From sequence record SRR20825019_1182: a stretch of DNA of 51,988 nt. One strand, written 5' to 3'. Of this stretch, positions 1 to 34,272 are shown in pieces. Both the position numbers and the translations under genes were made by a program. Within the stretch, counting starts at the first letter, position 1, and every line of letters begins with the position of its first letter. The notes under the pieces are model-generated. The model saw only the letters and a list, made by a program, of their open reading frames with translations, was not told the DNA's origin and ran no database searches.

Positions 1-58
1 TCCGCTTGCTCTGAACGAACGTCAGATTCACCACACTGGCCGCTTGCAGGAGGAAATG

Positions 59-388
59 ATGTTTGTATATGGCGACAAGGTGGAAGCAGAAGAGCTGGGC
101 GATGGTGTGAGCCGGAAGATACTGGCCTACAGCGAAAACGGAATGTCGGTCGAGGTTTCTTTTGAAACCGGCGCGATCGGCCCGATCCACCATCACTATC
201 ATGAGCAGTTCACCTATGTGCTTTCCGGTACCTTCGAGTTCACCATCGGTGACGAAACCAAAGTCGTGAACGCTGGCGACCTACTCTACAAGGCTCCCAA
301 TGTTCCGCACGGTTGCCGGTGCCTGAAGGCGGGCCGGCTGCTCGATACATTTGTGCCGATGCGTGAGGATTTCATCAAGCCGGCATGA
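59..388 (+). CDS. kdgF: Cupin-domain protein, KdgF-like (unsaturated uronate processing in pectin/alginate catabolism)
   Basis: Cupin motifs HHHYHEQFTYVLSG and PNVPHG; ~110 aa ending in PMREDF as in KdgF; AGGAGG at 48-53 favours ATG 59 (or 56) over TTG 44. Confidence 0.8.
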   Translation: MFVYGDKVEAEELGDGVSRKILAYSENGMSVEVSFETGAIGPIHHHYHEQFTYVLSGTFEFTIGDETKVVNAGDLLYKAPNVPHGCRCLKAGRLLDTFVPMREDFIKPA

Positions 389-420
389 TCGTTCTTTAAC
401 GCTGTCCCGGGTGTTGTAAT

Positions 421-443
421 TCGGCATAGGCGTTCGATGCCGA
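421..443. terminator. Stem-loop between convergent genes, possible terminator
   Basis: TCGGCAT-N9-ATGCCGA inverted repeat downstream of the cupin stop; no clear U-tract. Confidence 0.35.
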
Positions 444-539
444 TCGGCGCGATAAGTCTTTGAAAGATTTAAAGCATGTGGGGTCCCAGTGCCACGCCGA
501 ATGACAGATTGGCAGGCTGCAAATGAATTCAGAATGATC

Positions 540-1085
540 TCAGGCAGATGCGTTTCTTCTCAAATCGTTCAACGTTTCTTCGCAGGTGGCTCTGTCCTGT
601 TCAGCGCATTTTGCCATGAGTTCCAGAAACTGCGTATGGACATTGCTGATCCCGTCGGTCTTGATTTTCCGGCACTCTTCGATTGTCGAGCGCCGCATTT
701 CCCAGATCTTGTGCTGAGCGTTAAGAAGCATTTTCTGCGTTTTCTGCTGGTGCTCCGAACTTCCCCAGAATGCTGACGGGCCGGTGCTTGCAGGGGTGTT
801 CGCCCCGGCAGTAGCGGAGTGCTCGCTGCCTGCCGGGTTTGCTTGGTCGCCTGCGTCCTTTTCCGTCGCATATGAGGTTTTCTCATGCGCATTTGAAATG
901 AGTTCAGAAAGAGATGGCTCGGCCCTGCTGTTTTGATGGGGTGCATCAGCCGGAGCGCTTTGAGATTGCGCCCCCGGGACGCTGATTTTGCCGTGGCTCG
1001 CTTCTGTCTGGAGCGCTGCTGCCCCACCCGTTAAGAGCCAGGAGTGTTCACCACCGGAAACCTGAGTTTGAATTGCAGGCGACAT
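540..1085 (-). CDS. Orphan protein, 181 aa; disordered S/A/Q/P-rich N-terminus and helical C-terminus (secreted-substrate-like)
   Basis: ORF with purine-rich RBS (AGGAAGG...ACAGG) before ATG; protein-like composition; same strand as the 680-aa ORF upstream. Confidence 0.7.
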   Translation of the reverse strand: MSPAIQTQVSGGEHSWLLTGGAAALQTEASHGKISVPGAQSQSAPADAPHQNSRAEPSLSELISNAHEKTSYATEKDAGDQANPAGSEHSATAGANTPASTGPSAFWGSSEHQQKTQKMLLNAQHKIWEMRRSTIEECRKIKTDGISNVHTQFLELMAKCAEQDRATCEETLNDLRRNASA

Positions 1086-1237
1086 CCTGTTTAACCTTCC
1101 TGGCGCTTGAGGCGCTTCATCTGCGCCGATTGAAGCCCTGCCCTATAACGCACCATAAATGTGATTTTGCGAGACACAGACCGTGCCACAGGGGCGCAAT
1201 CCCTTGCATTCTGCATTGTTGTTTTCTGATCTGAAAA

Positions 1238-3280
1238 TCAGAAATGTAAATCTACAACGCTTTCGCTTTCGCTTTCGCGGCTGCTTGTGTTTGAGCGGGT
1301 TGATCCGGTTGCGGAAGCATCTGGCCTGTCTTTCGGTTCTCCCGGTGGTGAGGGGGCTCTGTACACGGGCTGTCCAGGCGCTACCGCGGTTTCATCCATT
1401 TCTATAACAACACTGTCGCCGGCACCTGAATTCTCGGGCCTTCTACCGGATTCGGCGTTAAAGCCCTGCCCCGCGGCCATTGCAGGCGCTTCCATGTCGG
1501 CATCAGGCGCCGGAGCAGATGAAGTGGGACAGGGGGCTGTGAGGCATCCGAAGTAATCAGAAAGCGCATGACCCAAGGTAGAGACACCACTACGCATATG
1601 GGAAGCCGGGTTTCCATACCAGCTGTCATTGGCAGGCTGTGCATTGATCCTGATCCGCTCGGCGGCGGCTTGTCTCGCCTGATCGAGGTCATCCAACGCT
1701 TCGGAAAACAGCTCCGTGCCCGGTTTCATTTGAAAGATATGAACAAGTTTTTCCTGGAGCTCACCCAGTGCCGCCTCTACCTGCTTTTTTTCTTCCAGAG
1801 CGCGAGCAACGTCGGCTCCGGTCTGACTTAGATTTCTGGTGTAGCTTTGCTCGACCTTCGGTGGCCGGAGCGCCTTGCGCATATCCATCACGGCTTTCAT
1901 GGTGCCATGCATGGCTCCGTCGCGGCGTTCTTCATGCTCTGTTGCAGACTCGTCACATTTTTTCTGACCAGCCCACATGGCAGCCTCTTCAGAAACCCCC
2001 CTTGCAATACCGAGTAACAACTCCTGCGAAGCTTCGCTGCCGGTGAGGCTGCGATTGAGGATGAGTGATTTGCCGATCTGAGCAAGAGCTCCGGCGGGCG
2101 TCTTCGCGGCGGTCTTTACAGCTGCGCCCATACCGGAACTTGTATCCGTGAAAACCAACTTCGCCAGCAGATCGATCGTTGATTTCAAGAGCGAGCGGGC
2201 AACGAGTACAAACATCGGCATCAGCGCTTCTGTCGCACTCACATCCTCGCCATTATATGCTTTGGCTGCACCAATCGCGCCTCCCGCGGCAAGGCCGAGC
2301 ACAAGTGCACTGGACACACTTGCGACCGCTGAGTGAGGCGTTTTCTTGATGTTTTCACACTTGCTATCCAGCGCATAACGGTCGCTCTCGGGGGTTACAG
2401 CGGCGGCGGCTGAGGCATGTGTGGCGCGCGCTGTACGCTGTTCATAGACAGCCTCATTCAGGAAATCCGATACGAAGGACAGGAGTGTTAAAGCGGCATC
2501 TGCGGCGTATGCCATTGCGCTGGTTTGCGGGGAAACCAGATACTCGCTATGGGCGGGGAGGGAGCAGCTTTTATCCCCTTCAGCGCGCGTATTGTTGTGC
2601 AGAGTATTGCCCATAAGGTCTTCGCATTCAGTTTCCCGTTCTTGTACGCTGGCCTTCTGAATGCCGAGCCCTACCGCTATCGGGATCAACGCCAATAGAG
2701 AAGCATTCACGATGTGGTAGCGATTGGCGTGAACTTGCGGTATAAAGTCTCTCCAGTTGTTCGGCCATGGCCCGGATTGATATGACTCGGCCTTGGGTGT
2801 GGTGCGCTTGACCAGTTCCTCAACCACAAACCGGTCTTCTTCATTCAGCTTCTTGATCTGCTTTTCCAGAAACTCCTGCGCTCCTGCCAATTTATCGTGA
2901 TACTTTTTCGGCCCTAAGGCAGTTGCAAGTTCATCAAGAACCTTCTTGAGGTGCTGGCCCTCATCGCCCTCGAAAAAGTTCAGGCTTTCCTGCGCCGCGC
3001 GATGCCCCTTGATATTGTGCTGACCGAGAAGTGCGGAAAGGCTTTCCCTGTCGGGGGCTGGCAGGCCACTTGTCGACGTCGCCGATGAACCGCTTGCCTG
3101 ATGCCGGCTCTGGTTTGTGTTGCGCCGACGCAACCCGTCGGTACCACCACCATCAGCAGGCTGCATCTGGCGGAACTGATCTCTGGCTCGTGGCGGTCTT
3201 TTTGGTCCCGCGTCACCTGTCTCTGGCTGATGGTGAATGGAGTCGTGATGGTTTGGCGTCGTTGCAGAGTTCGTGTGCAT
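1238..3280 (-). CDS. Orphan 680-aa protein with disordered termini, ~4 hydrophobic segments and a coiled-coil-like region (effector/translocator-like)
   Basis: Long ORF with AAAGGA RBS; hydrophobic stretches at about aa 190-207, 255-274, 318-339 and 353-377; no Sec signal peptide; no family recognised. Confidence 0.8.
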   Translation of the reverse strand: MHTNSATTPNHHDSIHHQPETGDAGPKRPPRARDQFRQMQPADGGGTDGLRRRNTNQSRHQASGSSATSTSGLPAPDRESLSALLGQHNIKGHRAAQESLNFFEGDEGQHLKKVLDELATALGPKKYHDKLAGAQEFLEKQIKKLNEEDRFVVEELVKRTTPKAESYQSGPWPNNWRDFIPQVHANRYHIVNASLLALIPIAVGLGIQKASVQERETECEDLMGNTLHNNTRAEGDKSCSLPAHSEYLVSPQTSAMAYAADAALTLLSFVSDFLNEAVYEQRTARATHASAAAAVTPESDRYALDSKCENIKKTPHSAVASVSSALVLGLAAGGAIGAAKAYNGEDVSATEALMPMFVLVARSLLKSTIDLLAKLVFTDTSSGMGAAVKTAAKTPAGALAQIGKSLILNRSLTGSEASQELLLGIARGVSEEAAMWAGQKKCDESATEHEERRDGAMHGTMKAVMDMRKALRPPKVEQSYTRNLSQTGADVARALEEKKQVEAALGELQEKLVHIFQMKPGTELFSEALDDLDQARQAAAERIRINAQPANDSWYGNPASHMRSGVSTLGHALSDYFGCLTAPCPTSSAPAPDADMEAPAMAAGQGFNAESGRRPENSGAGDSVVIEMDETAVAPGQPVYRAPSPPGEPKDRPDASATGSTRSNTSSRESESESVVDLHF

Positions 3281-3289
3281 GGAGATCCA

Positions 3290-3930
3290 TCCTTTATAAC
3301 TGTTGATGCGTATTCAATATATGGAAATATCAGTCAAATATATTTTTAGTAATATTGTAATTTACATATTATATATAAATATATCTAATAGATTTTTATT
3401 ATAATTGTGACATAGATAAAATTTATATTGTTTTATATGTTTCGATAAGTGACTTTGCCGACTGATTTCCTCAAAAATAAATGCTGCATCCGCCAATGAT
3501 TTATTCGTTCGTTGTGTGATGGCGGCATTGGGAACCTGCCCCGCCTCTCGGGCGAGGCTGCGCAATGCGTAGGCGGGAAACTCATCGGCACTTTGCGTAC
3601 CTGAACCTCCAACCAGAAACAGCGCAGTGATGCGGGTGTCTGCAAAGTAACTGTGTCTTTTTAGATACAACCTGGGATTTTATCCATAAATGCGCCTGTT
3701 GGCTGTTTTGTGCCGAATGCTTTGATATCGGCGCACTTAATAAATACACAATTAAAACAATTAGATAATTTTATATATTGTACATATTTTTTATAATTTA
3801 ATAATATATTATATAATATAAATATATTGACGGACAAATACAATTTGTTATTCATTATTACTAGAGGTTATAGTTAACTATAGTAGTTAATTCTAATATG
3901 TAGGTGTATCAATATTGGAAATTTCTGAAA
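3290..3930. promoter_or_regulatory. AT-rich divergent promoter region (two AT blocks flanking a GC-normal core)
   Basis: About 3300-3480 and 3735-3925 are overwhelmingly A/T, between divergently oriented genes; contains the palindrome TATAGTTAACTATA at 3869-3882. Confidence 0.6.
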
Positions 3931-4060
3931 CGAAACCCGACGAAAATACAACCGATACGCGATTTCATCGAGTTTGACGGGTTGCGATCTGATGCATTGG
4001 CCTCCGCCGCTTGGCAGGGGCGAGCTTTCATGGGGGGCGGCGAAAGCCGGTTGATGCCGA

Positions 4061-7000
4061 ATGGAACCAGGGCGACTTACACGACAACTGATGCATTCAC
4101 CGGCAGTGAATTGGAGTGCTGCGTTGCCTGTGGCGAATGGAGATGAGAATAGTTCAGCCTGTCATGGGCCGCATGAAAGCAGAGCCGGGGTTGTTGTTTC
4201 TCGCCTTGCAAAGGTTACCAGGCTTCTTCTGGCGGTTATAACATGTGCTTTCTTTCTGGGTGCAGGCGCAACGCTTGCTGCACCGGGAAATCCGGGCGTG
4301 CCCTCAGCTCCGCAGGTATTGTTTGAGGAGGATTTCGAAAATGTTTCAAGTCCGACCGCTTTTGTCATGCTGCCGAATTATACCGGCACATCGGGGACAA
4401 CCTACACGGCAGATCAGCCATGGCTAGTGAGTTGCAACGGTATTCTCGTTGCTGCTTCGCAGTCTTCGTCAGACAGCCAAGGGGTCAGTGCCTGCTATGG
4501 AAGCGGCTCCTGGAATGGCGTTCGCGAACTCGCGCTGGGGATCGCCAATTTCGAAGGTTACACTGGCTCTGCAGCACAAGCGAGACGCTCTGTTGCCGCT
4601 TTTACAGCAGGCGATCCCGGCGCAAACCGCATTGAATTTGCGACCACAACAGATGTCAGCATTCCAGCGCCTCCAGGTGGTGCGCAGAGGTTTGTGTCTT
4701 TTCAGGTCGTCGTCGGGGCTCTCAGTTGTCATGCAGCCCATCCTCAATTGCAGTTTTATCTGGTCGATGGGCAGGGCAATGAGGTGCAGGCCGGTTCCAG
4801 GATTGATGGTTGTGGCGGTAAAAGTTCCGGGGGCAACTATGGCCGCTATGCCAGTGGCGGGATTTTGTTCTCAGGTTCAAGCCTTGGCATCATCATGCGC
4901 AACCAGCAGGGCAGTGGCTCGGGGAATGACCATGCCTTTGACAATATTGTTGTGCTTGATTCCACGCCACAGCTGGATAAAGCCTACGCCAACACGAGTG
5001 TTCCCGCCGGGCAGACCACCAACCTGGTTTTCACCATTACCAATACAAGCGAGCTCGGTAGCAAGCAGGGATGGGCATTTGAGGAAACGCTGCCCGCCGG
5101 TCTGACGGTTGCCGGAGCCCCCTCGAACACCTGTTCGGCCTCCGTTTCGGCCATTTCCAACTCTGACAAGGTTGTGGTTACCGCGGGGACAATCAACTCG
5201 AATGTTGCCTCATGCACGATTACGGTTCCGGTGAAGGCCTCTGCCGGCGGCACCTTTACGTCGATGGCGACATCAACCACCAATCTGAAAGCCATTCGGG
5301 CACCGGCCGATGCCGAAGTCACATTCTTCGAGCTCAATCTCGATGTTGCCAAGTCAGGTAGCCTGGTCGATACCAATAATAACGGCCGACCGGATGTGGG
5401 CGAGAAGATCGGCTACACGGTCACTGTGAGCAACAATATTGGTGTGAATGTCACCGGTGTTTCTGTTTCCGACAGCCTTCCCGGCGTCACTCTCTCCCCG
5501 GCGTCTCAGGATATTCCGGCAGGTCAGAGCAGGGCCTATACCGGCGAGTATGTCCTTCAGGCCGCCGATATTGATCGTGGTTATGTCGATAACACCGCAT
5601 CGGTCAGCGGAACTGCAAGCGGCGGTTCATCCGTCAGTGGCGATGGCGAAACCACTACGACCTTGCAGCGTGTGGCTGATTTTGCCGTCAGCAAGGCGGC
5701 AGCGGCCATACCCTCTCCCTTCTCCTATGGCGACCAGATCAACTATACGGTTGAAATTACCAATACCGGTAACGTTACCTTGAGTGGTGTGACGCCGAGC
5801 GACCCCTTTCTTGACACCGGCCTCACGCTGGTCTCGCCAACCGGCTTTTCAGGATCGCTGCCTGCTGGTGGAACGGTGGTATATTCGGGTGCCTACACGC
5901 CCAGTCAGGCGGAGATCAATAGCGGTTCCTATCTCAATAAAGCGACCGTTACCGCTACTCCTCCGTCCGGGGTTGGCCCGACGATTTCCAGAGAAGGTGA
6001 GGAAGTCACCGCCATTGCGGCGGACCCGTCAATGGCTGTCAGCAAGGTTTCGAAGATCATCGATGCCAACGGCAACGGGGTTCTCGATCCAAACGAAACG
6101 ATCAACTACACGATCAACATTGAAAACACGGGCAATGTCACGCTGACGAATGTGCAGCCAACGGATACACTAGAGACCAGCCCTCCGCAGACGCTGCCAT
6201 TGACACCAGGCGGTCCGGTTTCAATCGAACCGGGTATCGTTGAAGAGTTTACGGCGAGCTATACGCCCACGCAGGCAGATATTGATGCCGGTACGCTTGA
6301 CAACAGGGTTTCTGTCGCTGCCGACGGGCCAGGCGGACCTCTTTCGCCGGTGGAGCAAACCGAGACAACAACCATAACATCGTCAGGCGCGTTTGAAGTT
6401 GAAAAGACGGCAACACTGAGCCCCTCGGGGGCGACGTTCGCCGCTGGTGACCGGGTCAACTATCAGATTACAGTTACCAATACCGGTAATACAACTCTGA
6501 CCATTCCGGCAAATGCAGTGACCGATACGCTTGGCAACAGCCAGACCCTTACTGTTACGCCACCGGCCTCGACAACGATCCCACCCGGCAACAGCGCAGT
6601 ATTTACGGCCTTCTACGACACGCTGCAGGCGGACCTGGATAATCTGACGCTGAGCAACACGGCAGATGTCACGCTGAATCTCCCGGATAGTTCAACGGTC
6701 TCCGATACGGTTACAATTGACACAGCATTCCCGATTGCCGCCGTACTCGATTTCGAAAAACTGAGTATCTATCAGGATATTGACGGGACTCCCGGCCCAA
6801 GCGTCGGGGATCAGATTGACTATACTCTCAGAGCCCATAACAGGGGCAATGTCACGCTGACGAATGTCTTGCCGTCGGATCCGATGCTGGTCGCGGCCGG
6901 CGTGTCATTGACGCCAAGCACGGCACAGACGCTGGCTCCCGGAACGTCGGCAGATTTCACCGCCACATATGATCTTGTTCAGGCAGATGTTGATACGGGT

Positions 7001-10000
7001 TATGTGCTGAATACCGCGTCGGTGACGGGTGTTTCCCCCAACGGAACCACATTGAGCAGCGAAGAGACCAACAGCACGGACTCAGCCGGTGCCGTCTCCA
7101 TCGCCATGGAAAAGAGGGGTGTTCTGAACGACCTCAATGGGAACGGTTTTCCCGACGTGAACGAGACCATCGACTATACCGTCACAGTGCTGAACGACGG
7201 TGCCGCATCAGTCACGAATGTTTCTGCTTCCGATGAGACATATCCAGGCCTCGTCTTCAGCCCTGCGTCGGTTGCCTCACTCGCACCAAGTGCAACAGCG
7301 TCGTTCATGGCCAGCCTTACGCTGACCCAGGCCATGATTGATGCCGGGAGCGTGACGAACACCGCCAAGGCAACCGCCACGAGCACAAATGCCGGTGCTC
7401 CGACGATTACGGCGACAGACCAGACTTCCAACACGCTTGTCGCCAGTCCCCAATACACCTTTTCCAAGACAAGCGACTACGTTACCGGCGTAACGCCGCC
7501 TTATTCTGCCGGGGATGTGATCAACTACACTTTCACCTTTGAGAATACAGGCAATGTCACGCTGACGAATGTGAGTATTAGCGACCCGAAACTGGATTCC
7601 GGCTCGTTAACACCGACCTCTGTGCCCAGTATCGCTCCGGGCGGCAATCAGATCTTTACCGGCACGCATACCGTGACGCAGCAGGACATTGACGGTGGTT
7701 CCCTGCTCAACATCGCAACCGCCGAAGCCACGCCTTTGGCGGGTGGTCCGTCGATCAGTAAAAAAAGCAACGGCGTGTCAGTGTCTTTCGCGGAGGCCAG
7801 TCAGCTGGATGTCAGCAAGACTGTCAGTTTTGTTGGTTCGGCCAGTGCCAGCAATTTCAACCTCGGAGACAAGCTGATCTACACGATCACAGTGTCCAAT
7901 AACGGTAACACCTCGATCACTGACATTGCGGTTGAGGACAAGATTGCGGGCATTGTTCTTCAGCCGGACCCATCAAATACCGATCCGTTGCTGCCCGGCG
8001 ATACCAACACCTACACGGCCGAATATACACCGACCCTGGCCGACATCAATGTCGGCACTTTGGTCAATGAAGCGGTTGCGACCGCAGAGACTGTCGGCAA
8101 GGCGACGGCCATAAGTGCGAGTGGGCAACAGACGACGAACTTCACGCCGAACGCCGATCTCACCGTCGTGAAAACGGCCACTTTCGACAGCGGACGTCTG
8201 GATCCCGGCGATGTGATTGAATTTACAGTCGTCGCCACCAATACGGGGAATGTGACGTTGACTGGCGTCACGGTCACGGACCCAATGCCGGGACTGGTCC
8301 TGTCGCCTGTCGATCCGTCGTTCTCGGGAACACTCGCACCAAGTGACAGCATTGCCTATGCCGGGACATACACCCTGCTGGTATCGGACATCAATTCCGG
8401 GCAACTCAGCAATACCGCCAGCGCGTCCGGCGATTTGCCGAATGGCGGCGGAACAATACCGGCCCAGCCCAGCAATCCGGCAGTTGTCACCTTCTCAAGC
8501 TATCCCGATATGGACGTCGAGAAGACCAGCGTTCTTAACGACAGTAAAGGCAATGGTCTCTATGATGTCTTGGAGACGATTGATTACACGGTGCGTGTCA
8601 CCAACAAGGGCAATGTGACGCTGGATGGTGTTTTGCCAACCGACACATTGCAGCGTAACGACGGTACCACCGAAACGCTGACACTTTCGCCGGCAACTGC
8701 CCAGTCTATCGGTCCCGGTGAGTACAGGGATTTCACGACTTCCTATCAGATAACACAGACCGACCTTGATGCCGGTGGCATCTGGAATGAAGCCACAGCG
8801 ACAGGCACACCACCTGCTATCAGCGGTTCACCGGCGATAACGCTGGCAGACCAGACCATGCCGAGCGTTGCCAACAACCAGCCCCGGCTTTCCGCCACCC
8901 TGAACGGCGTACTTGATGACGCAAATCAGAATGGCGTGGGTGATGTTGGCGAAACCGTTAACTTCGAAATGGTGGTCACGAATACAGGCAACTCGACGCT
9001 GACGAATGTGCGCGCTGAAGAGCTGCTACCCGGCGTTACCCTGACGACGAGCGATCCAACCACGCTTGCGCCGGGCGAAAGCCTGACATTTTTCGGCAGT
9101 TATGATCTGACAATCGAAGATTATGAAAGTAACGCGCTTGAAAATACGGCACGTGCGCTCGGCGATACAGGTTATGGCGAAGCCTATACAAGTGACGATG
9201 CTCTGGCGATCGTCAGCTGGAACACGCCATCTGTTCTGATTGCTGAAAAAACGGCCCTGCTGATTGATATCGATAATAGTGGAACGGCGACGGCAGGCGA
9301 CCAGATCAAATATGTGATCACCGTGACCAATGACGGAGGCCAGTCGCTTACCGATGTGACGCCTGTTGATGATGGTGTCGTTCTGCCGGATGACAGTGCA
9401 GGCACTGGTACGATGTCAGCCTTCACGCCGGCCACTGCCTCGCTTGAGGCCAATGAAAATACTGAATTCACGGCGCTTTATACCATCAGCGAGCAGGATT
9501 TCAGTATCGCGGTTGGTGATGAGGTGGGGATCACCAATACGGCATCGGCGGTTGCCGCCGCCGGTCTTCAGGTCCTGACGGCGGCAGCAAGCTCTGCTTC
9601 TGTGAAGATTGATGCGGTTCAGCCCGGCGATATTTCCATTACCAAAGTGGCTGCAACACCGCAGATCCGTCGTGGTGAAAAAGCACAGTTCACGATTACC
9701 GTGATCAACAATACGGATCACAAGGTTGCCAACATCAATATTCGTGACCGTATTCCCAGTGGCTTCCGTTATGTCGAGGGTTCTGCATCGATCAATGGGG
9801 CGGTTGTTGAGCCTCTGGTCTACAGCCGGGACGTCCTCTTCGAGGATGTTTCCGTTGACGCTGACAGCAAAACCTACATCCGCCTTGCCATGACAGCGCT
9901 GAGTACGCTGGAACCCGGAACCTATCAGAACACCGCATATGCGACGGATCGTTTCGGAGCCACACTTGCTCCCAAGGCTGTGGCCGAGATCACGATTATG

Positions 10001-10591
10001 GTGGACCCCGTCTTTGACTGCGGTGATCTGATAGGCCGTGCTTTTGATGATCAGAACCGCAATGGGTATCACGATGCCGGTGAACCCGGACTTCCCGGTG
10101 TGCGCGTGGCTACCGTGAACGGTCTTCTGGTGACGACCGATGAGTTTGGTCGCTTTCATGTCGCCTGCGCGGCGCTTCCCGACAATCGCATCGGCTCCAA
10201 CTTCATCATGAAGCTGGATGAGCGGACCTTGCCGAGCGGCTACAGCGTCACCACCGAAAATCCGCGTGTTGTGCGGCTGACAGCAGGCAAGATGACCAAG
10301 CTGAACTTCGGTGCCTCAATCGGTCGGATTGTCAGTCTGGATCTGACTGACAGCTCCTTCATCGCCGATGAAACAGCACTGAAACCAGGCTGGTTGGCTG
10401 GTCTTGATCAGGTCATCAAAATTCTCGCGACGGAACCGTCGATCCTGAAAATCAATTATTACGGCGATCAGCTCGGCACGTTGGCACGCGAAAGATTGCG
10501 GGAGGTTTCCAGAGAAGTCCGGCGCCGTTGGGAGGTGGGCAGAGCGCCTTATCCCCTTGAAATCAGTACCCAGCTGGAGGCAGGCAAATGA
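4061..10591 (+). CDS. Giant surface protein/adhesin: signal peptide, N-terminal tip domain, ~14 DUF11-like Ig repeats, C-terminal SdrD-B-like module
   Basis: Signal-like segment RLAKVTRLLLAVITCAFFLGAGATLA; repeats of K..G(D/E).I.YT..V.N.GNVTLT.V...D...NTA; C-terminal GRAFDDQNRNGYHDAGEPGLPGVRV; exact start uncertain. Confidence 0.85.
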   Translation: MEPGRLTRQLMHSPAVNWSAALPVANGDENSSACHGPHESRAGVVVSRLAKVTRLLLAVITCAFFLGAGATLAAPGNPGVPSAPQVLFEEDFENVSSPTAFVMLPNYTGTSGTTYTADQPWLVSCNGILVAASQSSSDSQGVSACYGSGSWNGVRELALGIANFEGYTGSAAQARRSVAAFTAGDPGANRIEFATTTDVSIPAPPGGAQRFVSFQVVVGALSCHAAHPQLQFYLVDGQGNEVQAGSRIDGCGGKSSGGNYGRYASGGILFSGSSLGIIMRNQQGSGSGNDHAFDNIVVLDSTPQLDKAYANTSVPAGQTTNLVFTITNTSELGSKQGWAFEETLPAGLTVAGAPSNTCSASVSAISNSDKVVVTAGTINSNVASCTITVPVKASAGGTFTSMATSTTNLKAIRAPADAEVTFFELNLDVAKSGSLVDTNNNGRPDVGEKIGYTVTVSNNIGVNVTGVSVSDSLPGVTLSPASQDIPAGQSRAYTGEYVLQAADIDRGYVDNTASVSGTASGGSSVSGDGETTTTLQRVADFAVSKAAAAIPSPFSYGDQINYTVEITNTGNVTLSGVTPSDPFLDTGLTLVSPTGFSGSLPAGGTVVYSGAYTPSQAEINSGSYLNKATVTATPPSGVGPTISREGEEVTAIAADPSMAVSKVSKIIDANGNGVLDPNETINYTINIENTGNVTLTNVQPTDTLETSPPQTLPLTPGGPVSIEPGIVEEFTASYTPTQADIDAGTLDNRVSVAADGPGGPLSPVEQTETTTITSSGAFEVEKTATLSPSGATFAAGDRVNYQITVTNTGNTTLTIPANAVTDTLGNSQTLTVTPPASTTIPPGNSAVFTAFYDTLQADLDNLTLSNTADVTLNLPDSSTVSDTVTIDTAFPIAAVLDFEKLSIYQDIDGTPGPSVGDQIDYTLRAHNRGNVTLTNVLPSDPMLVAAGVSLTPSTAQTLAPGTSADFTATYDLVQADVDTGYVLNTASVTGVSPNGTTLSSEETNSTDSAGAVSIAMEKRGVLNDLNGNGFPDVNETIDYTVTVLNDGAASVTNVSASDETYPGLVFSPASVASLAPSATASFMASLTLTQAMIDAGSVTNTAKATATSTNAGAPTITATDQTSNTLVASPQYTFSKTSDYVTGVTPPYSAGDVINYTFTFENTGNVTLTNVSISDPKLDSGSLTPTSVPSIAPGGNQIFTGTHTVTQQDIDGGSLLNIATAEATPLAGGPSISKKSNGVSVSFAEASQLDVSKTVSFVGSASASNFNLGDKLIYTITVSNNGNTSITDIAVEDKIAGIVLQPDPSNTDPLLPGDTNTYTAEYTPTLADINVGTLVNEAVATAETVGKATAISASGQQTTNFTPNADLTVVKTATFDSGRLDPGDVIEFTVVATNTGNVTLTGVTVTDPMPGLVLSPVDPSFSGTLAPSDSIAYAGTYTLLVSDINSGQLSNTASASGDLPNGGGTIPAQPSNPAVVTFSSYPDMDVEKTSVLNDSKGNGLYDVLETIDYTVRVTNKGNVTLDGVLPTDTLQRNDGTTETLTLSPATAQSIGPGEYRDFTTSYQITQTDLDAGGIWNEATATGTPPAISGSPAITLADQTMPSVANNQPRLSATLNGVLDDANQNGVGDVGETVNFEMVVTNTGNSTLTNVRAEELLPGVTLTTSDPTTLAPGESLTFFGSYDLTIEDYESNALENTARALGDTGYGEAYTSDDALAIVSWNTPSVLIAEKTALLIDIDNSGTATAGDQIKYVITVTNDGGQSLTDVTPVDDGVVLPDDSAGTGTMSAFTPATASLEANENTEFTALYTISEQDFSIAVGDEVGITNTASAVAAAGLQVLTAAASSASVKIDAVQPGDISITKVAATPQIRRGEKAQFTITVINNTDHKVANINIRDRIPSGFRYVEGSASINGAVVEPLVYSRDVLFEDVSVDADSKTYIRLAMTALSTLEPGTYQNTAYATDRFGATLAPKAVAEITIMVDPVFDCGDLIGRAFDDQNRNGYHDAGEPGLPGVRVATVNGLLVTTDEFGRFHVACAALPDNRIGSNFIMKLDERTLPSGYSVTTENPRVVRLTAGKMTKLNFGASIGRIVSLDLTDSSFIADETALKPGWLAGLDQVIKILATEPSILKINYYGDQLGTLARERLREVSREVRRRWEVGRAPYPLEISTQLEAGK
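6131..7572 (+). repeat. Three identical 23-nt intragenic repeats GGCAATGTCACGCTGACGAATGT
   Basis: Copies at 6131-6153, 6845-6867 and 7550-7572, each encoding GNVTLTNV. Confidence 0.9.
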
Positions 10592-13500
10592 GCGTCTTCA
10601 AGGTGGCTGCCATGAGCCGGAAAAATGGTGCCTCGATCAGGTCTATTCTGAAAAACAGTGTGTTTGCAACGGGTCTCTGTGCGGCGGCCGTGGCTTCTCA
10701 GGCTTCTTCAGCCTATGCCGAGGAACCGGCGCAGTTCGCGATTTCGGTCGATGGTGAGCCGCTGGTCATCGACAATCTGCCCGCCGCTCAGGTTACCCCT
10801 GAAAAGCTGGAAGCAGTGAAAGCACGTGCAGAAAATCGCGCCAGAAGAACCGATGTGGATTTGAGCGCGGTGGATATTCAGGTGAAGTTCGACGGTCTCG
10901 ATACCGAGCCTGTTCTAAATGTGGTGACGGATGATGTCGAACGGTCTTTCGAGGCGGGCGACACAGTTAACTTCTACACTTCAAGTAACTATCCCGCATA
11001 TATTGAGCGGGCCGAAATCCGGGTTTTCGGAGAGGACGAAAACTTCACGCCTGAAAGCGTTCCCCTGGCCGTGGTGCCGGTTCTGATCAACTCTGGTGTT
11101 GAATGGGACGTGCCGGCTTTGCAAAATGCTGATGGTCCATTGACCTATGTCCTGCGTGTTTATGGCAAGAACGGCCTTTATGATGAAACGCGCTCGCGGT
11201 TGATCCGGCTGAAGGCTGCCGAGCAGCTTTCCGGCCAGTTGGATGATGATAACCTTGCCAACAGGATTTCCGCTGACGAAGCGCTCAGTGCAACGCAGAT
11301 TGGTGTTGGAAATATTCAGGGTGCGCTGGATATGTCGGAAGACTATGCATTGCGCCGGAATATTCCCATCGTTGGTGGCACAGTGACTGTCTATGGCCGC
11401 AGCGTACCCGATGGCTACACAGTGCGTACCCTCGGAGATGAGGTTGAGCTTGATGATGACGGTAACTTCGTCATTCAGCGCATTATTCCGAATGGCGATC
11501 AATCTGTTGATGTGCTGGTTGACAAGCCCGATGGCGGGCGGGCCGTCGAGTTTACCCGTGAAATCAATATTCCCGATAATGAATGGTTCTATATGGGGCT
11601 TGCCGATATTACCATCGGCCAGCGCACCGGATCGGAAAATATCGAGGAGGTGCGCAATGATGAGTATGACGAGGTCTACTCCAACGGGCGTGTGGCGTTT
11701 TATCTCAAAGGCAAGATCAAGGGTGAGTATATCCTGACTGCGGCCCTCGATACCGAGGAGGACGATCTTGCCAATCTGTTTCCCGGACTCGATGAACGGA
11801 ACGCGCGGCAATTGCTGAAAGAACTGAACGAGGATGACTATTATCCCGTTTATGGTGATGATTCCGTAGCAATCGATGATGCGCCGACCAGCGGAAAATT
11901 TTATGTGCGTTTGCAGCACAACGACAGCCACATCATGTGGGGTGATTACCGGGTTAAAATAGACGGAACCGAGCTGCAGCGGACGAATCGGGCGCTTTAC
12001 GGAGCCCAGGCGGTTTATCAGCCCGACAAGGCAACCTCTTTCGGTGCCCCGCAAACGAGGCTCCAGGTTTATGGTGCGCAACCCGACACGCTGACCGCTG
12101 TGGACCAGTTCCTGGGAACCGGTGGCTCAGTCTACTTCCTCAACCACTCAGACCTGACTGCGGACACCGAGACTCTGACCCTGGAAGTGCGGGACTCTGA
12201 TACCGGAGTCGTCCTTAGTTCTTCGACGCTAATTTATGGCGAAGACTATAATATCGATTATATTCAGGGTGTTATCATTCTGACAGACCCTTTGATGTCG
12301 CAGACGGGAACGAACTCGCCTGTGCGCTTTGGCGCCATCGGTGGCAATGACGTCTACCTCGTTGCAGAATATGATTACACGCCGATTGCCGAAGATATTG
12401 ACGGTTATGTCTATGGAGGCCGCGCCGAGCAGTGGTTGGGCGATCATGTGCGCGTTGGCGTCACTGGCTCTTCAGACAGTACCGGTGAGGGTGCAACAGA
12501 TGCCTATGGTGGTGATATCCGGCTGCGTTATTCCGACAACACCTTCCTCGATGCGGAGATTGCGACAACCAATGGTTCGCAAACCGGCCAGTCGATATCT
12601 ATGGATGGCGGGCTGACGCATACCGATCTGAACACGCGCAATATCGATAAATCTGCGCTGGGCTGGCGGCTGGCTGGCCAAGTCGATCTGGCGGATATCA
12701 GCGAAAATGCCGATGGTGTCATTCAGGGATACTTTGAGACAAAGCAAGCCGGTTTCACCTCATTGACGGAAGATCTCAATGCCCCGGAAACTCAATGGGG
12801 TATCAGCGCAGAAACCTCCATTTCGGATGCAATGGCACTCGCACTGTTCTACGACTATTATGACAGCGAGGGCTATTATAACGCTGATTCCAACTCGTTC
12901 GTGACAGGCAGCAGCAAGCAGCAGGGAGAGATGAACCTCACGCGGCAGTTCAATGAGCGCTGGTCGGTCTCGGCGGGTCTTGGCTACACGCTCGAACATC
13001 GGCCATCAGAAACCGCTACCAATGCCTATGGCACCAATGGTGAGCGCGTCGATCTCGGTGTTCGGGTAGAATACACCCTCGATGATGGCGAAAGTACTGT
13101 TTATGTGTTCGGGCAAACCACGGTTTACGAAGAAGGAAACATCGACCGTGGCGACCGGGCGGGCGTGGGCACAAGCTACCAGATTACCGAGACACTCGGC
13201 ATTGACGGAGAAATCTCATACGGCACCACTGGATGGGGCGGCCTTGCCGGTGCTTCCTACCAGCCGAATGAAACGGACCGCTATTATGTCAACTACGTTA
13301 TTGATCCGGACCGGGCCTATGACTGGAACCAGACTTACAATCTTTACGGTCAGGATCTTGGAACGGTTGTTGTCGGTGCCGAAAAGGAGATCAACGACAT
13401 GTGGTCGGTCTATGCCGAAAACAACTATGATCTCTACGGTGAGCGCAACACCATGTCACGCACCTATGGGGTCACGTTTTCACCCGATGCCGTATGGACC

Positions 13501-14352
13501 ATGGATGCAGCTTATGAAGGTGGCCAGGTTGACGATGACACCATTGATCCGGCAACCGGTCTGAAAAATTCAGATTTTGACCGAAATTCCTTTTCTCTAG
13601 CCTTCAATTATGATGATGACGAGGAAAATGGCGTTGTCGCCAGACTGCGTGGCGAGGCACGCTTTGAAGATTCCGAGGATGGCACCGGCGACATCAACAG
13701 CTATCTTGTTTCCGGTTTTTACAACTACCGGGCCAATGATGACTGGCGGCTTCTGACAAGCATTGATGCTGTGTTTGAAGACGCCGGACCAGACGCCACA
13801 CTCGCGATCAATGACTATATCGAAGCGGTTGCAGGCTGGGCCTATCGTCCTGCGGACAATGACCGTTTCAATGCGCTCTTCCGCTATAACTTTCTCTATG
13901 ACATGCCAAGCGCTGACAGCTACTACTATTCAGACAATAACGAACCAGGACAGCGCTCGCACATTCTGTCGGCGGATTTTATTTATGACCTCACCCCGCA
14001 ACTCAGCATTGGCGCCAAGTATGGCTTTCGCCTGAGCGAGATTAAACAACAGCTGAATGACCCGGAACTGGGTCGCTACTACTCCGGTTGGGAAAATGCC
14101 AATGCCCATCTCGGCGTTATCCGGGCCGATATTCATGTGGTCAAGAAGTGGGACTTCCTCACTGAAGGCAGGGTTCTCTATACGCCCACATCACAAACCA
14201 CCGATTTCGGAGCTCTGGCAGGCGTTTACCGGCATTTCGGAAATAACATCAAAGTCGGTGGTGGGTATAACTTCGGTAGCTTCTCCGATGATCTGCGTGA
14301 TCAGACCTATGATGACCGTGGTTGGTTTATCAATATCATCGGCAAGATCTGA
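10588..14352 (+). CDS. Large predicted outer-membrane beta-barrel protein with N-terminal soluble domains, partner of the repeat protein
   Basis: ATGA overlap with the upstream stop; signal peptide ending AYA|EE; long run of amphipathic, aromatic-rich beta-strands; C-terminus GWFINIIGKI; alternative start 10612. Confidence 0.8.
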   Translation: MSVFKVAAMSRKNGASIRSILKNSVFATGLCAAAVASQASSAYAEEPAQFAISVDGEPLVIDNLPAAQVTPEKLEAVKARAENRARRTDVDLSAVDIQVKFDGLDTEPVLNVVTDDVERSFEAGDTVNFYTSSNYPAYIERAEIRVFGEDENFTPESVPLAVVPVLINSGVEWDVPALQNADGPLTYVLRVYGKNGLYDETRSRLIRLKAAEQLSGQLDDDNLANRISADEALSATQIGVGNIQGALDMSEDYALRRNIPIVGGTVTVYGRSVPDGYTVRTLGDEVELDDDGNFVIQRIIPNGDQSVDVLVDKPDGGRAVEFTREINIPDNEWFYMGLADITIGQRTGSENIEEVRNDEYDEVYSNGRVAFYLKGKIKGEYILTAALDTEEDDLANLFPGLDERNARQLLKELNEDDYYPVYGDDSVAIDDAPTSGKFYVRLQHNDSHIMWGDYRVKIDGTELQRTNRALYGAQAVYQPDKATSFGAPQTRLQVYGAQPDTLTAVDQFLGTGGSVYFLNHSDLTADTETLTLEVRDSDTGVVLSSSTLIYGEDYNIDYIQGVIILTDPLMSQTGTNSPVRFGAIGGNDVYLVAEYDYTPIAEDIDGYVYGGRAEQWLGDHVRVGVTGSSDSTGEGATDAYGGDIRLRYSDNTFLDAEIATTNGSQTGQSISMDGGLTHTDLNTRNIDKSALGWRLAGQVDLADISENADGVIQGYFETKQAGFTSLTEDLNAPETQWGISAETSISDAMALALFYDYYDSEGYYNADSNSFVTGSSKQQGEMNLTRQFNERWSVSAGLGYTLEHRPSETATNAYGTNGERVDLGVRVEYTLDDGESTVYVFGQTTVYEEGNIDRGDRAGVGTSYQITETLGIDGEISYGTTGWGGLAGASYQPNETDRYYVNYVIDPDRAYDWNQTYNLYGQDLGTVVVGAEKEINDMWSVYAENNYDLYGERNTMSRTYGVTFSPDAVWTMDAAYEGGQVDDDTIDPATGLKNSDFDRNSFSLAFNYDDDEENGVVARLRGEARFEDSEDGTGDINSYLVSGFYNYRANDDWRLLTSIDAVFEDAGPDATLAINDYIEAVAGWAYRPADNDRFNALFRYNFLYDMPSADSYYYSDNNEPGQRSHILSADFIYDLTPQLSIGAKYGFRLSEIKQQLNDPELGRYYSGWENANAHLGVIRADIHVVKKWDFLTEGRVLYTPTSQTTDFGALAGVYRHFGNNIKVGGGYNFGSFSDDLRDQTYDDRGWFINIIGKI

Positions 14353-14525
14353 TGTCTGTGCGGTCTTGTTCGAAACCTTACGCTGGCCTGCCCGGATGCG
14401 GTTTCTCATCGTAAAGCCGCCGCGTGATCGACCAGAAACCTCCACATATTCCAGGCGACCGAGTTTTGCCATGCGGCCCTCCGTTCGGCGATGCTGCGTG
14501 GCGTTTTCGGGTTCCAATGTCGCGG

Positions 14526-24470: not shown

Positions 24471-25769
24471 ATGAACCGCGCACTGACACCCAATGTGCTG
24501 ACGCCGCAGGATCTTCAACCCAACTGGAACTGGGAGGGGCGTCTGCCCGCCTGGGGGCCGACGTCGGTCGATTTCGAGCGCCGCGTCGATCACGACCGGC
24601 TGAGGCGCTATCGCCTCTCGCGTACCCGGCAGGCGTTGAAGAACAGTGACGCGGGCTCGCTGCTGCTCTTCGACGTCAACAATATCCGCTATGTCTCCGC
24701 CACCAAGATCGGCGAGTGGGAACGCGACAAGATGTGCCGCTTCTGCCTTCTGACAGGCGATGACGCGCCCTACGTCTGGGATTTCGGCTCGGCGGCCGTT
24801 CATCACCGCAAGTTTTCCGACTGGCTGGTGCCGGATCATTGCCGCGCAGGTGTTGTCGGTATGCGTGGCACGATTCCGCCACCCTTCGGACTGATGAAGA
24901 AATATGCCGAGGAGATTGCGGGTCTCATCCGCGATGCCGGTATGGCCGATATGCCGGTCGGTCTCGATTATGCGGAAACCGCGATGTTCGAGGCGCTGAA
25001 GGCCGCCGGGCTGAATGTCGTGGATGGTCAGCAGATCATGTTGTCTGCCCGCGAGATCAAGAACTGGGACGAGATTCAGCTTCTCACGCAGGCCGCCAGC
25101 ATGGTCGATGGCGTCTACCACATGATTTACGAGGAACTGAAGCCGGGCGTGCGCGAAAACCAGATCGTCGCCATGTCGAACAAGCTGCTTTACGAAATGG
25201 GGTCCGACGATGTGGAGGCGATCAACGCCATTTCCGGCGAGCGATGCAATCCGCATCCGCACAACTTTACCGACCGGATGTTCCGTCCCGGCGATCAGGC
25301 GTTTTTCGATATCCTGCAGAGCTATCAGGGCTATCGGACCTGCTACTACCGGACCTTCAACATCGGTATGTCGACGCCCGCCCAGCGCGATGCCTATGTG
25401 AAGGCGCGCGAATGGATCGATGCCTCGATTGCGCTGATCAGGCCCGGCGTTTCCACCGATACGGTGGCGAAGGCGTGGCCGAAGGCGGAGGAATTCGGCT
25501 TTCCCGATGAACTGTCCGCTTTCGGTCTGCAGTTCGGCCACGGGCTCGGCCTTGCGCTGCATGAACGGCCGATCATCAGCCGTGCCGTCTCGCTCGACAA
25601 TCCCATGGAAATCCAGACTGGCATGGTGTTCGCGTTGGAGACCTATTGCCCCGCCGCCGACGGCTTTTCTGCTGCCCGGATTGAGGAGGAGGTTGTTGTC
25701 ACCGATACCGGTTGTCAGGTCATTTCGCTGTTTCCGGCTGCGGAACTGCCGATTGCAAACCGATACTGA
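24471..25769 (+). CDS. M24 (pita-bread fold) peptidase/amidohydrolase-like protein
   Basis: NIRYVS creatinase-type N-domain, REIKNWDEI, FGHGLG, ALETY and RIEE motifs. Confidence 0.85.
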   Translation: MNRALTPNVLTPQDLQPNWNWEGRLPAWGPTSVDFERRVDHDRLRRYRLSRTRQALKNSDAGSLLLFDVNNIRYVSATKIGEWERDKMCRFCLLTGDDAPYVWDFGSAAVHHRKFSDWLVPDHCRAGVVGMRGTIPPPFGLMKKYAEEIAGLIRDAGMADMPVGLDYAETAMFEALKAAGLNVVDGQQIMLSAREIKNWDEIQLLTQAASMVDGVYHMIYEELKPGVRENQIVAMSNKLLYEMGSDDVEAINAISGERCNPHPHNFTDRMFRPGDQAFFDILQSYQGYRTCYYRTFNIGMSTPAQRDAYVKAREWIDASIALIRPGVSTDTVAKAWPKAEEFGFPDELSAFGLQFGHGLGLALHERPIISRAVSLDNPMEIQTGMVFALETYCPAADGFSAARIEEEVVVTDTGCQVISLFPAAELPIANRY

Positions 25770-25782
25770 GGCGGAAAATGTC

Positions 25783-26766
25783 ATGAGCGCTCAAGAAAAC
25801 AAGCATAATCGCGAGGACTATCTGCGCATGTATCGGCAGATGGTTCGCATCCGCACCTTCGAGGACAATGCCAACCAGCTTTACCTTTCCGCCAAAATGC
25901 CGGGGCTTACCCACATGTATTCCGGCGAGGAGGCCGTTGCCGTCGGCATCTGCGAGGCGCTGACGGACAATGACCGGATTACCTCCACCCATCGCGGGCA
26001 TGGGCACTGCGTTGCAAAGGGTGCCGATTTTCAGGCAATGTTCTGCGAACTTCTCGGCAAGGAAGAGGGCTATTGCCGGGGCAAGGGCGGGTCGATGCAT
26101 ATCGCCGACCAGAGCCACGGCAACCTCGGCGCCAATGCCATTGTCGGTGGGTCGATGGGCATTGCCACAGGCTCTGCGCTTCGGGCCAAGATGCAGAACT
26201 CAGATGATGTGACGGTCTGCTTCTTCGGCGACGGGGCAACCGCGCAGGGGCTCTTGTACGAGGTCATGAATATGGCAGCCCTCTGGAACCTGCCGGTCAT
26301 CTATGCCTGCGAGAACAACGGTTATTCGGAATATACCAAAACGGTGGAAATTGCCGCCGGTTCGATTTCTGAACGCGCCCGCGCCTTTGGCATCGAGGCC
26401 TTTGAGGTGGACGGTCAGGACGTGCTGGCGGTTAATGAACTGACGCGCGAACTGGTACAGCGCTGCCGCCGTGGCGAGGGGCCGTTTTTCATTGAGCTCA
26501 AGACCTACCGTTATCACGGCCACCATGTCGGTGATATCAACCGCGAATACTACCGCTCGAAGGACGAGGAAAAGGAGTGGAAGGAAAACCGGGACCCGAT
26601 TGCGCTGTTTTCAACGTGGCTGACCGGTGAGGGGATTGCCTCGCAGGAAGAGCTTGAGGCCATGCAGGCCGAAATCCGCGACGACGCGGCTTCTTCCGTC
26701 GAATACGCTCTGAAGGCGAAATACCCCGACGTGGGCGAAGTCGACATGCATGTTTTCGCGGACTGA
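25783..26766 (+). CDS. ThDP-dependent dehydrogenase E1 alpha subunit (AcoA/PdhA family)
   Basis: THRGHGH, GKGGSMH, FFGDGA...ENN ThDP motif, YRYHGH; start MSAQ at 25783. Confidence 0.93.
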   Translation: MSAQENKHNREDYLRMYRQMVRIRTFEDNANQLYLSAKMPGLTHMYSGEEAVAVGICEALTDNDRITSTHRGHGHCVAKGADFQAMFCELLGKEEGYCRGKGGSMHIADQSHGNLGANAIVGGSMGIATGSALRAKMQNSDDVTVCFFGDGATAQGLLYEVMNMAALWNLPVIYACENNGYSEYTKTVEIAAGSISERARAFGIEAFEVDGQDVLAVNELTRELVQRCRRGEGPFFIELKTYRYHGHHVGDINREYYRSKDEEKEWKENRDPIALFSTWLTGEGIASQEELEAMQAEIRDDAASSVEYALKAKYPDVGEVDMHVFAD

Positions 26767-26776
26767 GGAGGATACC

Positions 26777-29105: not shown

Positions 29106-29121
29106 ACATTGGAGCCATGTG

Positions 29122-30552: not shown

Positions 30553-30553
30553 T

Positions 30554-31483: not shown

Positions 31484-31550
31484 TCATTGCATTGTCACCC
31501 TATCCGGCGCGTGGCGCCCTGAGACCGCATTGTGCCTTTCCAGCTTCAGT

Positions 31551-32300
31551 TTATCCGTCTGCTGTCGTTGCCGGGAGTTTGCGCGAGGGATCGTTGCCCA
31601 GATCGAAATAGTCGGTGTGTGAGGCAGCGATGGCGGGTAGATCCTGCAGCAGGTTGCGCATGTGCGTACGCAAAGCCGACACCGCTTTCTCCGTGTCCTG
31701 TTCTGCCAGCGCGCTGACGATCTCCTGATGTTGCTCAACGAGCTTTTCCCCCGCAAATTTCTCCAGGCTGAGATAGCGGACGCGGTCCATTTGTGCCTTC
31801 AGATTTTCCAGAACGTCCCAAACGCGCACCTTGCCTGCCATGGCTGCCAGGGTGCGGTGGAACTGTTCATCCATAGCCAGAAAGGCATTTGTATCGGAGT
31901 TGATAACTTCCCGTTGCAGTGCAATTTGCTGCTCCAGTTCCTTGATTTGCCGGGGGCCGATCTTGCCTGTCAGCTCACGTACGATATCGGCTTCAATGGC
32001 TTCGCGGATAAAGCGCGCATCCATCACTTCACCAATTGAAATCTTGCGGACGAAGCTGCCGCGCTGTGGGCGGATCTCCAGAAGCCCTTCTTCGGCCAGC
32101 TTGATGAAGGCTTCGCGAACGGGCTGGCGCGACAGCGCATAGCGCGTGGCGATTTCCTGCTCGGAAAGGCGCATTCCGGGTTTCATCTCTGCCTGGATAA
32201 TGCTGTCGCGCAACAGCCTCACAATCTGTGGCCCGATCGGAACTGTCAGGTCGAGAGCGGACGCGCCGGGTATCTGATTGTATGGCTGCTTCATGATCAT
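31551..32300 (-). CDS. GntR-family (FadR/FCD) transcriptional regulator
   Basis: PGMRLSEQEIA...SRQPVREA HTH; FCD motifs DEQFH, QHQEI and HM; start 32300 or 32294. Confidence 0.9.
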   Translation of the reverse strand: MIMKQPYNQIPGASALDLTVPIGPQIVRLLRDSIIQAEMKPGMRLSEQEIATRYALSRQPVREAFIKLAEEGLLEIRPQRGSFVRKISIGEVMDARFIREAIEADIVRELTGKIGPRQIKELEQQIALQREVINSDTNAFLAMDEQFHRTLAAMAGKVRVWDVLENLKAQMDRVRYLSLEKFAGEKLVEQHQEIVSALAEQDTEKAVSALRTHMRNLLQDLPAIAASHTDYFDLGNDPSRKLPATTADG

Positions 32301-34227: not shown

Positions 34228-34272
34228 CGTTTTTCGCCTTCAGAGCACCTTCAGAACAATTGACAGCGACGA

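Follow-up and report, generated by a model that had tools for sequence, protein, structure and literature searches.

The stretch analysed here (the window) comprises 51,988 nucleotides of sequence record SRR20825019_1182, and near one end it carries ORF680, an open reading frame (ORF) encoding a protein, P0001, with very few relatives. ORF680 is a single uninterrupted ATG-to-stop frame of 680 codons at window positions 1238-3280, on the minus strand. A first-pass annotation made from the DNA letters had proposed this 680-aa frame, giving no strand, as an orphan effector or translocator that might insert into host membranes. The frame is present as proposed, and we distinguish the following features in and directly before it.

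1238..3280, minus strand: ORF680 coding sequence, 680 aa plus stop, encoding P0001 (ORF list; one homologue cluster at 40% identity; comparison of nonsynonymous and synonymous differences, pN/pS)
3290..3294, minus strand: Shine-Dalgarno sequence AAGGA, 9 nt 5' of the ATG (read from the sequence; context common to metagenome locus L001)
3059..3280, minus strand: residues 1-74, unstructured, basic (isoelectric point, pI, 11.2), rich in S/T/P/H/Q/G, without signal peptide (low-confidence coil prediction; composition)
2810..3058, minus strand: residues 75-157, conserved, predicted helical N-domain with the block LSALLG..N..GHRAAQES (55% identity over residues 81-120; prediction)
2660..2716, minus strand: residues 189-207, hydrophobic segment 1, Kyte-Doolittle (KD) value 1.95 (homologues 1.61 and 1.74), with conserved Pro200 (KD profile; alignment)
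2522..2659, minus strand: residues 208-253, loop with Cys219 (2624-2626) and Cys239 (2564-2566) (alignment; composition)
2459..2515, minus strand: residues 256-274, amphipathic helix of weak hydrophobicity, KD 1.33 (homologues 1.10-1.11) (KD profile)
2273..2329, minus strand: residues 318-336, Ala/Gly-rich hydrophobic segment, KD 1.88 (homologues 1.65 and 1.65) (KD profile)
2186..2242, minus strand: residues 347-365, weak hydrophobic helix, KD 1.47 (KD profile; alignment)
1550..2035, minus strand: residues 416-577, best-conserved, predicted helical C-domain with HEE.RD.AMH.TMKAVM, MKPGT.LFSEAL and GHALSD (alignment; model)
1241..1540, minus strand: residues 581-680, unstructured tail, acidic (pI 4.3) and fast-evolving, containing DSVVIEMDE and, at its end, ESESESVVDLHF (alignment; composition)

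ORF680 is a real and constrained gene. Both of its homologues, with 676 and 681 aa, are intact, and a codon-wise comparison with the homologue in L001 over 500 core codons gave a pN of 0.387 under a saturated pS of 0.756, which together mark ORF680 as a genuine gene. The start call is supported because the ribosome-site context AAGGATGG..CC-ATG precedes both ORF680 and the homologue in L001.

We next consider how widely the protein is distributed. The weight here rests on an exhaustive phmmer/HMMER search of 1,835,955,588 representatives at E <= 0.001. The sole phmmer match was P0002 (E 3.1e-99, 40% identity over residues 68-630). Clustered at 90%, P0002 is joined by P0003 alone; both are unnamed metagenomic proteins from short contigs, that of P0003 being 4205 bp long. 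The label "orphan" was therefore nearly right, and needs amending only for this one relative cluster among 1.84 billion representatives. Family libraries added little. Pfam-A (hmmscan, E <= 10) yielded no significant family, the only matches being Diphthami_syn_2 (E 0.021) and BLH_phosphatase (E 3.3); NCBIfam gave zero matches for P0001, PADLOC and PHROGs gave only noise (E >= 0.0033), and the family profile searched against all PDB sequences reached FtsH at a non-significant E of 0.24. None of the 32 stretches from GTDB species genomes and none of the 38 from viral contigs contained a relative. Metagenome contigs gave 58 stretches, and the sole relative among them was P0002 itself, on its 2151-bp contig without flanks. 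Word-indexed searches with P0001 and with profile A1 were blank but uninformative, as the A1 search missed P0002 and P0003 although both are in the collection. Judged from these sequence searches, the ORF680 family has no named relatives and is seen in two lineages only.

Residues 75-580 form the conserved core (39% identity). Two of its hydrophobic segments, 189-207 and 318-336, reach KD >= 1.6 in all three proteins. Of the "about four" Ala/Gly-rich segments described in the first-pass annotation these two hold up, while 256-274 and 347-365 are weaker and not conserved. From its profile, segment 256-274 is not a credible membrane span, and the counterpart of 347-365 in P0002 and P0003 shows no peak above KD 1.0 and includes charged residues. 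The loop with two cysteines described after the first segment was confirmed and is conserved, Cys219 and Cys239 aligning with the only two cysteines of P0002 and P0003; P0001 carries four further, non-conserved cysteines. The stretch previously described as coiled-coil-like, ARALEEKKQVEAALGELQEKL, corresponds to residues 491-511 and lies inside a predicted helix (487-516) of the C-domain, in a low-confidence model. AlphaFold2 predicted a helical core for the whole of P0001, but with a predicted local distance difference test (pLDDT) score of 31.9 and a predicted template modelling (pTM) score of 0.23, an unusable confidence. For residues 416-580 it predicted four long helices, again unreliably (pLDDT 55.1, pTM 0.25).

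Both ends of the protein differ from this core. S, T, P, N, Q, H and G account for 30 of the first 50 residues of P0001, and this composition, with the low-confidence coil prediction, agrees with the earlier description of a disordered, S/T/P/H/Q-rich stretch of about 75 aa. The earlier statement that there is no Sec or Tat signal is also borne out. In the first 70 residues the best 10-residue KD window is -0.53 and hydrophobic runs are never longer than one residue; because the N-terminus has no hydrophobic stretch, we assign it no Sec, Tat or lipoprotein signal. Residues 1-74 align poorly with P0002 (22-27% identity). The N-termini of both lineages are polar and have zero acidic residues in positions 1-12, a pattern that fits any disordered region. 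The S/T/P-rich N-terminus therefore does not point to type III secretion in particular.

The acidic tail contains the two motifs reported earlier, DSVVIEMDE at residues 622-630 and ESESESVVDLHF at residues 669-680. It evolves quickly: P0002 and P0003 differ in 21 of 121 tail columns, compared with 20 of the 507 columns of the core and none of the 53 columns of the N-terminal region. MAFFT pairs DSVVIEMDE with HDEVIQMNE of P0002. The best ungapped tail-to-tail matches are not this pair but other Pro/Ala-rich stretches, and shuffled sequences equalled them in 399 (9-residue window), 358 (11-residue) and 142 (13-residue) of 5000 trials. The terminal ESESESVVDLHF has no counterpart in the homologues, which end in a basic ...GDHRRQRM. 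We rejected the reading of the tail as carrying a conserved short linear motif, and the resemblance to a SUMO-interacting motif that had been proposed for ESESESVVDLHF is unsupported, because conservation of the tail motif was not above chance in 5000 shuffles and ESESESVVDLHF does not occur in the homologues. The last 30 residues have a net charge of -3 in P0001 and +3 in P0002 and P0003, and these opposite charges speak against a C-terminal type IV signal common to the two lineages.

We then asked how strong the hydrophobic segments are. Hydrophobicity was summed on a simplified biological scale over 19-residue and 12-17-residue windows and calibrated on proteins of the same stretch of DNA; the per-residue values, which we take to be those of Hessa et al., carried no position or length correction. 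The best 19-residue sums ranged from -3.3 to +0.6 in six transport permeases and from +5.0 to +13.3 in 18 soluble enzymes and regulators, and were +2.2, +4.6 and +4.2 in P0001, P0002 and P0003, respectively. Over 12-17 residues, the best sums were -2.3 to -5.0 in the permeases, -0.7 to +4.5 in the soluble proteins, -0.4 in P0001 and -0.7 in P0002. On this simplified, in-window calibration the family falls between permeases and soluble proteins, with the homologues near the soluble edge. The short-window sums of the family (-0.4 to -0.7) thus lie short of the grade recognised by the signal recognition particle (SRP) in resident inner-membrane proteins, for which the permeases stand here. By their 19-residue sums, the segments have the intermediate strength of secreted transmembrane-domain effectors, as far as a simplified scale with assumed values can be read within this one window.

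Such intermediate segments have been described before. In Krampen et al. 2018 (PMC6110835), the membrane segments of substrates of type III secretion systems (T3SS) and type IVB secretion systems (T4BSS) lie between those of single-span membrane proteins and soluble proteins and are mostly below SRP recognition. Work by Trenz et al. 2026 (PMC12981334) extends the same intermediate pattern to substrates of type IVA secretion systems (T4ASS). The hydrophobicity of ORF680 fits a secreted membrane effector and speaks against a classical SRP-targeted resident protein. It would be equally expected if the protein were soluble and helical and had a few helices that are buried or dip into a membrane.

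ORF680 also looks foreign to its surroundings. As the reference set for the codon adaptation index (CAI) we took 13 of the window's metabolic genes. ORF680 had the lowest codon adaptation among the coding genes tested (CAI 0.578, GC content at third codon positions 0.571). Neighbours outside the reference set (those for a cupin, a DUF7507 protein and a 1254-aa protein) had values of 0.638-0.717, and the 13 reference genes, which are inflated by construction, 0.625-0.770. On one side the gene borders an unusual spacer, and on the other it is followed by a small candidate gene.

3281..4060, no strand: AT-rich divergent spacer of 780 bp, GC 0.29-0.36, with a patch of GC 0.49 at about 3451-3750 (GC profile)
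540..1085, minus strand: ORF181, a possible second orphan gene, 152 nt downstream of ORF680 (ORF list; candidate gene)

The five genomes with the greatest similarity to the neighbouring genes match the window at 14.5-20 kb with 68-75% identity and contain no DNA counterpart of window positions 1-14500. In a plasmid collection, positions 1-12000 had one 56-bp match only and positions 25000-45000 matched at least 30 records, mostly at 60-81% identity (Tritonibacter, Phaeobacter, Marinovum and others). The closest DNA for the window genes is on Rhodobacteraceae plasmids (76-81%). One neighbouring protein has its best amino-acid identity to Hoeflea (85-86%), followed by Roseibium, Ahrensia and Rhodobacteraceae (81-84%). 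The module formed by the DUF7507 and 1254-aa genes recurs in three distant genomes, in each case without ORF680, ORF181 or the cupin gene. Codon usage, the AT-rich spacer, the missing DNA counterpart and this recurrence all make ORF680 look foreign, as far as sequence can suggest it. No tRNA, integrase, transposase or meaningful flanking repeat marks an island in the window.

The spacer contains a sigma-70-like match on the minus strand (3837->3808, a consensus match alone), and no Rfam family was found in window positions 1-4400, which include it. The spacer could be what remains of a gene, or else a promoter region that is silenced or under heavy regulation. Its 300-bp patch of normal GC content holds a GC-rich imperfect hairpin, and a 102-codon ORF within the spacer looks non-coding (CAI 0.458).

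The candidate ORF181 has 181 codons, with a Q/S/A/P-rich stretch in the first ~100 aa, a helical end with 3 Cys and a pI of 5.9. Its CAI (0.582) is similar to that of ORF680. It has no Pfam family, and a word-indexed search, which covered near lengths only, found no homologue. A complex prediction of ORF680 with ORF181 scored 0.00 against a mark of 0.34, a result that counts neither for nor against pairing.

How does ORF680 compare with known systems? The named comparison class is that of the transmembrane-domain effectors of T3SS and type IV secretion systems (T4SS), such as Tir, SseF/SseG and those of Legionella, Coxiella and Brucella, as presented in PMC6110835 and PMC12981334. Like these, ORF680 has no signal peptide, unstructured ends, a narrow distribution and a few helical hydrophobic segments of intermediate strength, below SRP grade. 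Unlike them, it has no sequence relationship to any member, and neither a secretion system or chaperone in its 52 kb nor a conserved secretion signal was seen.

The translocators form a second group. ORF680 resembles NopX/NolX/HrpF (PF05819) in size (two NolX homologues have 637 and 644 aa) and in being largely helical, and it shares with T3SS hydrophobic translocators the location of hydrophobic segments in the middle or C-terminal half. Membership of the NopX/NolX/HrpF family was rejected. An hhalign comparison of A1 with an alignment of two natural NolX proteins gave a probability of 0.08% (E 0.66), there was no PF05819 match at E <= 10, and no T3SS (rhc/hrp) family was found among the 35 neighbouring ORFs. 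Membership of the SctE-type translocators (YopB, IpaB and SipB) was likewise rejected: P0001 has no match to them in Pfam or NCBIfam, and the small ORFs flanking ORF680 include no tetratricopeptide repeat (TPR) or chaperone family. Pfam, hhalign, the 52-kb context and a T3SS secretin count of 0 in the 5 comparison genomes (see below) all speak against the translocator half of the original effector-or-translocator idea.

In the ESM Atlas, the nearest clusters to the whole protein were the type III effectors XopX, HopAA1-2, HopW and HopD1 (scores 0.78-0.82), and those nearest to the core (residues 76-580) were XopX, an unnamed cluster and HopAA1-2 (0.79). The search tool rates a hit as more than a lead at >= 0.9, and in one third of cases a shuffled protein also attains 0.8. 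The effector theme of these neighbours survives removal of the disordered ends, and we treat it as a lead, not as kinship. The XopX/HopAA1 clusters are similar in length to ORF680 (478-707 aa) but have no similarity to it at the level of hidden Markov models (Pfam, NCBIfam, phmmer), a comparison in which library coverage of these families is uncertain.

We tentatively propose that ORF680 is a translocated effector that associates with host membranes, a reading we hold to be the likeliest of those considered, though possible rather than probable. Listed in its support are the near-orphan distribution, the intermediate hydrophobicity, the lowest codon adaptation and the 780-bp AT-rich spacer, together with the lack of a signal peptide, the long unstructured ends, the conservation of Cys219 and Cys239 and, as a lead only, the ESM neighbours. 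Under this proposal, ORF680 would be an accessory protein that a marine alphaproteobacterium, living in a protist culture, gained by horizontal transfer. It would be exported without the Sec pathway and delivered into a eukaryotic (or other target) cell. There, the moderately hydrophobic helices 189-207 and 318-336 would insert into or dip into the target membrane. The intervening loop, which carries the conserved pair of cysteines, would lie on the oxidising side, and the helical domains and disordered ends would stay free for binding partners. Secretion, route, target membrane, topology and disulfide are all steps that we infer. The evidence in hand is consistent with an effector and does not decide for it.

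A number of results weigh against an effector. As the first-pass annotation had stated, no secretion apparatus gene lies in the window; none of the 35 neighbouring ORFs in 52 kb encodes a part of a secretion system, a chaperone or a member of a known effector family. Upstream of ORF680 there is no match to the presumed consensus of a PIP, hrp, tts or vir box. Window-wide, counts with the same consensus sequences were 3 for PIP (3.6 expected), 0 for hrp, 2 for tts (3.6 expected) and 7 for vir (7.1 expected). As an indirect check of plausibility, we ran marker models against the five genomes that most resemble the neighbouring genes. For the T3SS secretin, the model passed its cut-off in 0 of 5, and TssC, the sheath protein of type VI secretion systems (T6SS), and VirB4 were each found in 2 of 5. 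Of the 401 genomes sampled from that order, 2 have NolX. If ORF680 is delivered at all, a T4SS or T6SS seems a more plausible route than a T3SS. To these points are added several from the protein itself: both structure models are unreliable (pLDDT 31.9 and 55.1), the ESM scores are within the range of shuffled proteins, conservation of the tail motif is not above chance, and no type IV signal appears to be shared at the C-terminus. The hydrophobicity values, moreover, are the assumed and uncorrected ones noted above. The sums of P0002 and P0003 (+4.2 to +4.6) lie near the soluble range, which starts at +5.0, so that the family may not span membranes.

Nearly as likely as an effector, though doubtful in itself, is a resident peripheral protein of the cytoplasmic membrane: a lineage-specific envelope or scaffold protein, monotopic or held by a weak hairpin anchor without SRP-grade spans. 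Its helical domains and disordered ends would be cytoplasmic and its cysteine loop periplasmic. The two conserved segments, ~110 residues apart, permit such a hairpin (N-in/C-in), which would place the conserved cysteine pair in the periplasm, an oxidising compartment, and this arrangement requires no unproven export step and fits a 52-kb window without secretion machinery. Weak spans do occur in resident proteins, as 18 of the 47 individual permease peaks are at +2.2 or weaker. The best segment of each of the six permeases is, however, far stronger than that of any family member (-3.3 to +0.6 versus +2.2 to +4.6), and the 12-17-residue windows separate the two groups as well (-2.3 to -5.0 versus -0.4 to -0.7). 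A cytoplasmic lead of 186 residues without a strong first span would target poorly, and extreme rarity and foreign codon usage would be unusual for an envelope component. We consider it unlikely that ORF680 instead belongs in the cytoplasm without any role at membranes, as a lineage-specific protein of another kind whose long ends are disordered (a scaffold, a regulator or a mobile-element remnant, for example). The lack of family, fold and context information would suit such a protein, as would the hydrophobic peaks of P0002 and P0003, which are barely outside the soluble range. Against it, P0001 reaches KD 1.95 and 1.88 in two conserved segments, and only 1 of the 18 soluble proteins of the window reaches 1.6. 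There is also no transposase, integrase, tRNA or flanking repeat nearby, no phage family in PHROGs and no viral contig.

Most improbable of the alternatives, in our estimate, is a soluble all-helical toxin against competing bacteria, of a colicin-type or T6SS-like kind, whose Ala/Gly-rich helices would stay buried until the target membrane is reached, with ORF181 as partner or immunity protein. ORF680 resembles colicin-type and T6SS membrane-disrupting toxins in its helical core and in its moderately hydrophobic Ala/Gly-rich helices, which in P0002 and P0003 are close to the soluble range. The small orphan ORF181 lies on the same strand, 152 nt downstream, and TssC occurs in 2 of the 5 genomes most similar to the neighbouring genes. 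Unlike such toxins, ORF680 has no pore-forming or toxin domain in Pfam (E <= 10), and its two hydrophobic helices, with ~110 residues between them, do not form a contiguous hairpin. The 52-kb window contains no T6SS marker, no PAAR, VgrG, Hcp, Rhs or adaptor gene and no membrane immunity gene. Immunity proteins to pore formers usually have a hydrophobic span, and the candidate ORF181 has none, nor a homologue in the word-indexed search.

Returning to the effector proposal, a more far-reaching form can be drawn, which we consider rather unlikely in all its parts. ORF680 would found a new family of membrane-inserting effectors of free-living marine alphaproteobacteria, delivered into protist or algal cells by a non-T3SS route (T4SS, T6SS or vesicles). 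A weak helical hairpin would sit in the host membrane with a disulfide-bonded luminal loop, and the fast-evolving disordered ends would engage host factors. If true, this would open a first way into how bacteria of the phycosphere manipulate microalgal or protist hosts by means of proteins. Effectors are well mapped in animal and plant pathogens and hardly known for bacteria of marine protists and algae. As an effector, ORF680 would be a new sequence family within a known class, that of membrane-targeted effectors. If it is a resident membrane protein or a cytoplasmic protein, it is one more lineage-specific unknown. The evidence is circumstantial and its value is that of a testable lead, not a finding; a family of two lineages, found in a protist culture, whose physical features are those of secreted membrane effectors is a reasonable candidate for testing.

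The remaining genes of the window include those for ABC and TRAP transporters, dehydrogenases and regulators. Divergently from ORF680, on the plus strand at 4061-14352, is transcribed a 2176-aa DUF7507/DUF11/DUF7933 repeat protein with 12 DUF7507 stretches, translationally coupled by an ATGA overlap (10588-10591) to the 1254-aa protein, which has no Pfam family. The pair has 38-51% identity to its counterparts in the three distant genomes, and relatives of the 1254-aa protein were found in 24 of the 401 genomes of the sampled order, at no more than 50% identity. Probably the repeat protein acts as a giant adhesin at the cell surface, with the 1254-aa protein as its dedicated partner.

Further along, on the plus strand at 25507-31483, lies a 2-oxoacid dehydrogenase cluster in which a lipoyl-domain protein (27630-29102) and an E2 catalytic domain (30458-31483) are encoded by separate ORFs, with an aldehyde dehydrogenase gene between them. 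On related Tritonibacter and Phaeobacter plasmids, a separate biotin/lipoyl-containing protein is annotated together with E1 subunits and a succinate-semialdehyde dehydrogenase.

Finally, we recorded where window positions 400-4100 occur among sequencing runs, none of which was used as evidence. Four groundwater, aquifer and freshwater metagenomes share 0.06-0.18 of the sampled words, and no RNA run was among those listed as sharing this region. Three runs from one study, with three organism labels, contain 0.99-1.00 of the words and may include the source sample. Several cultures or samples of that study seem to share one bacterium, or its DNA.

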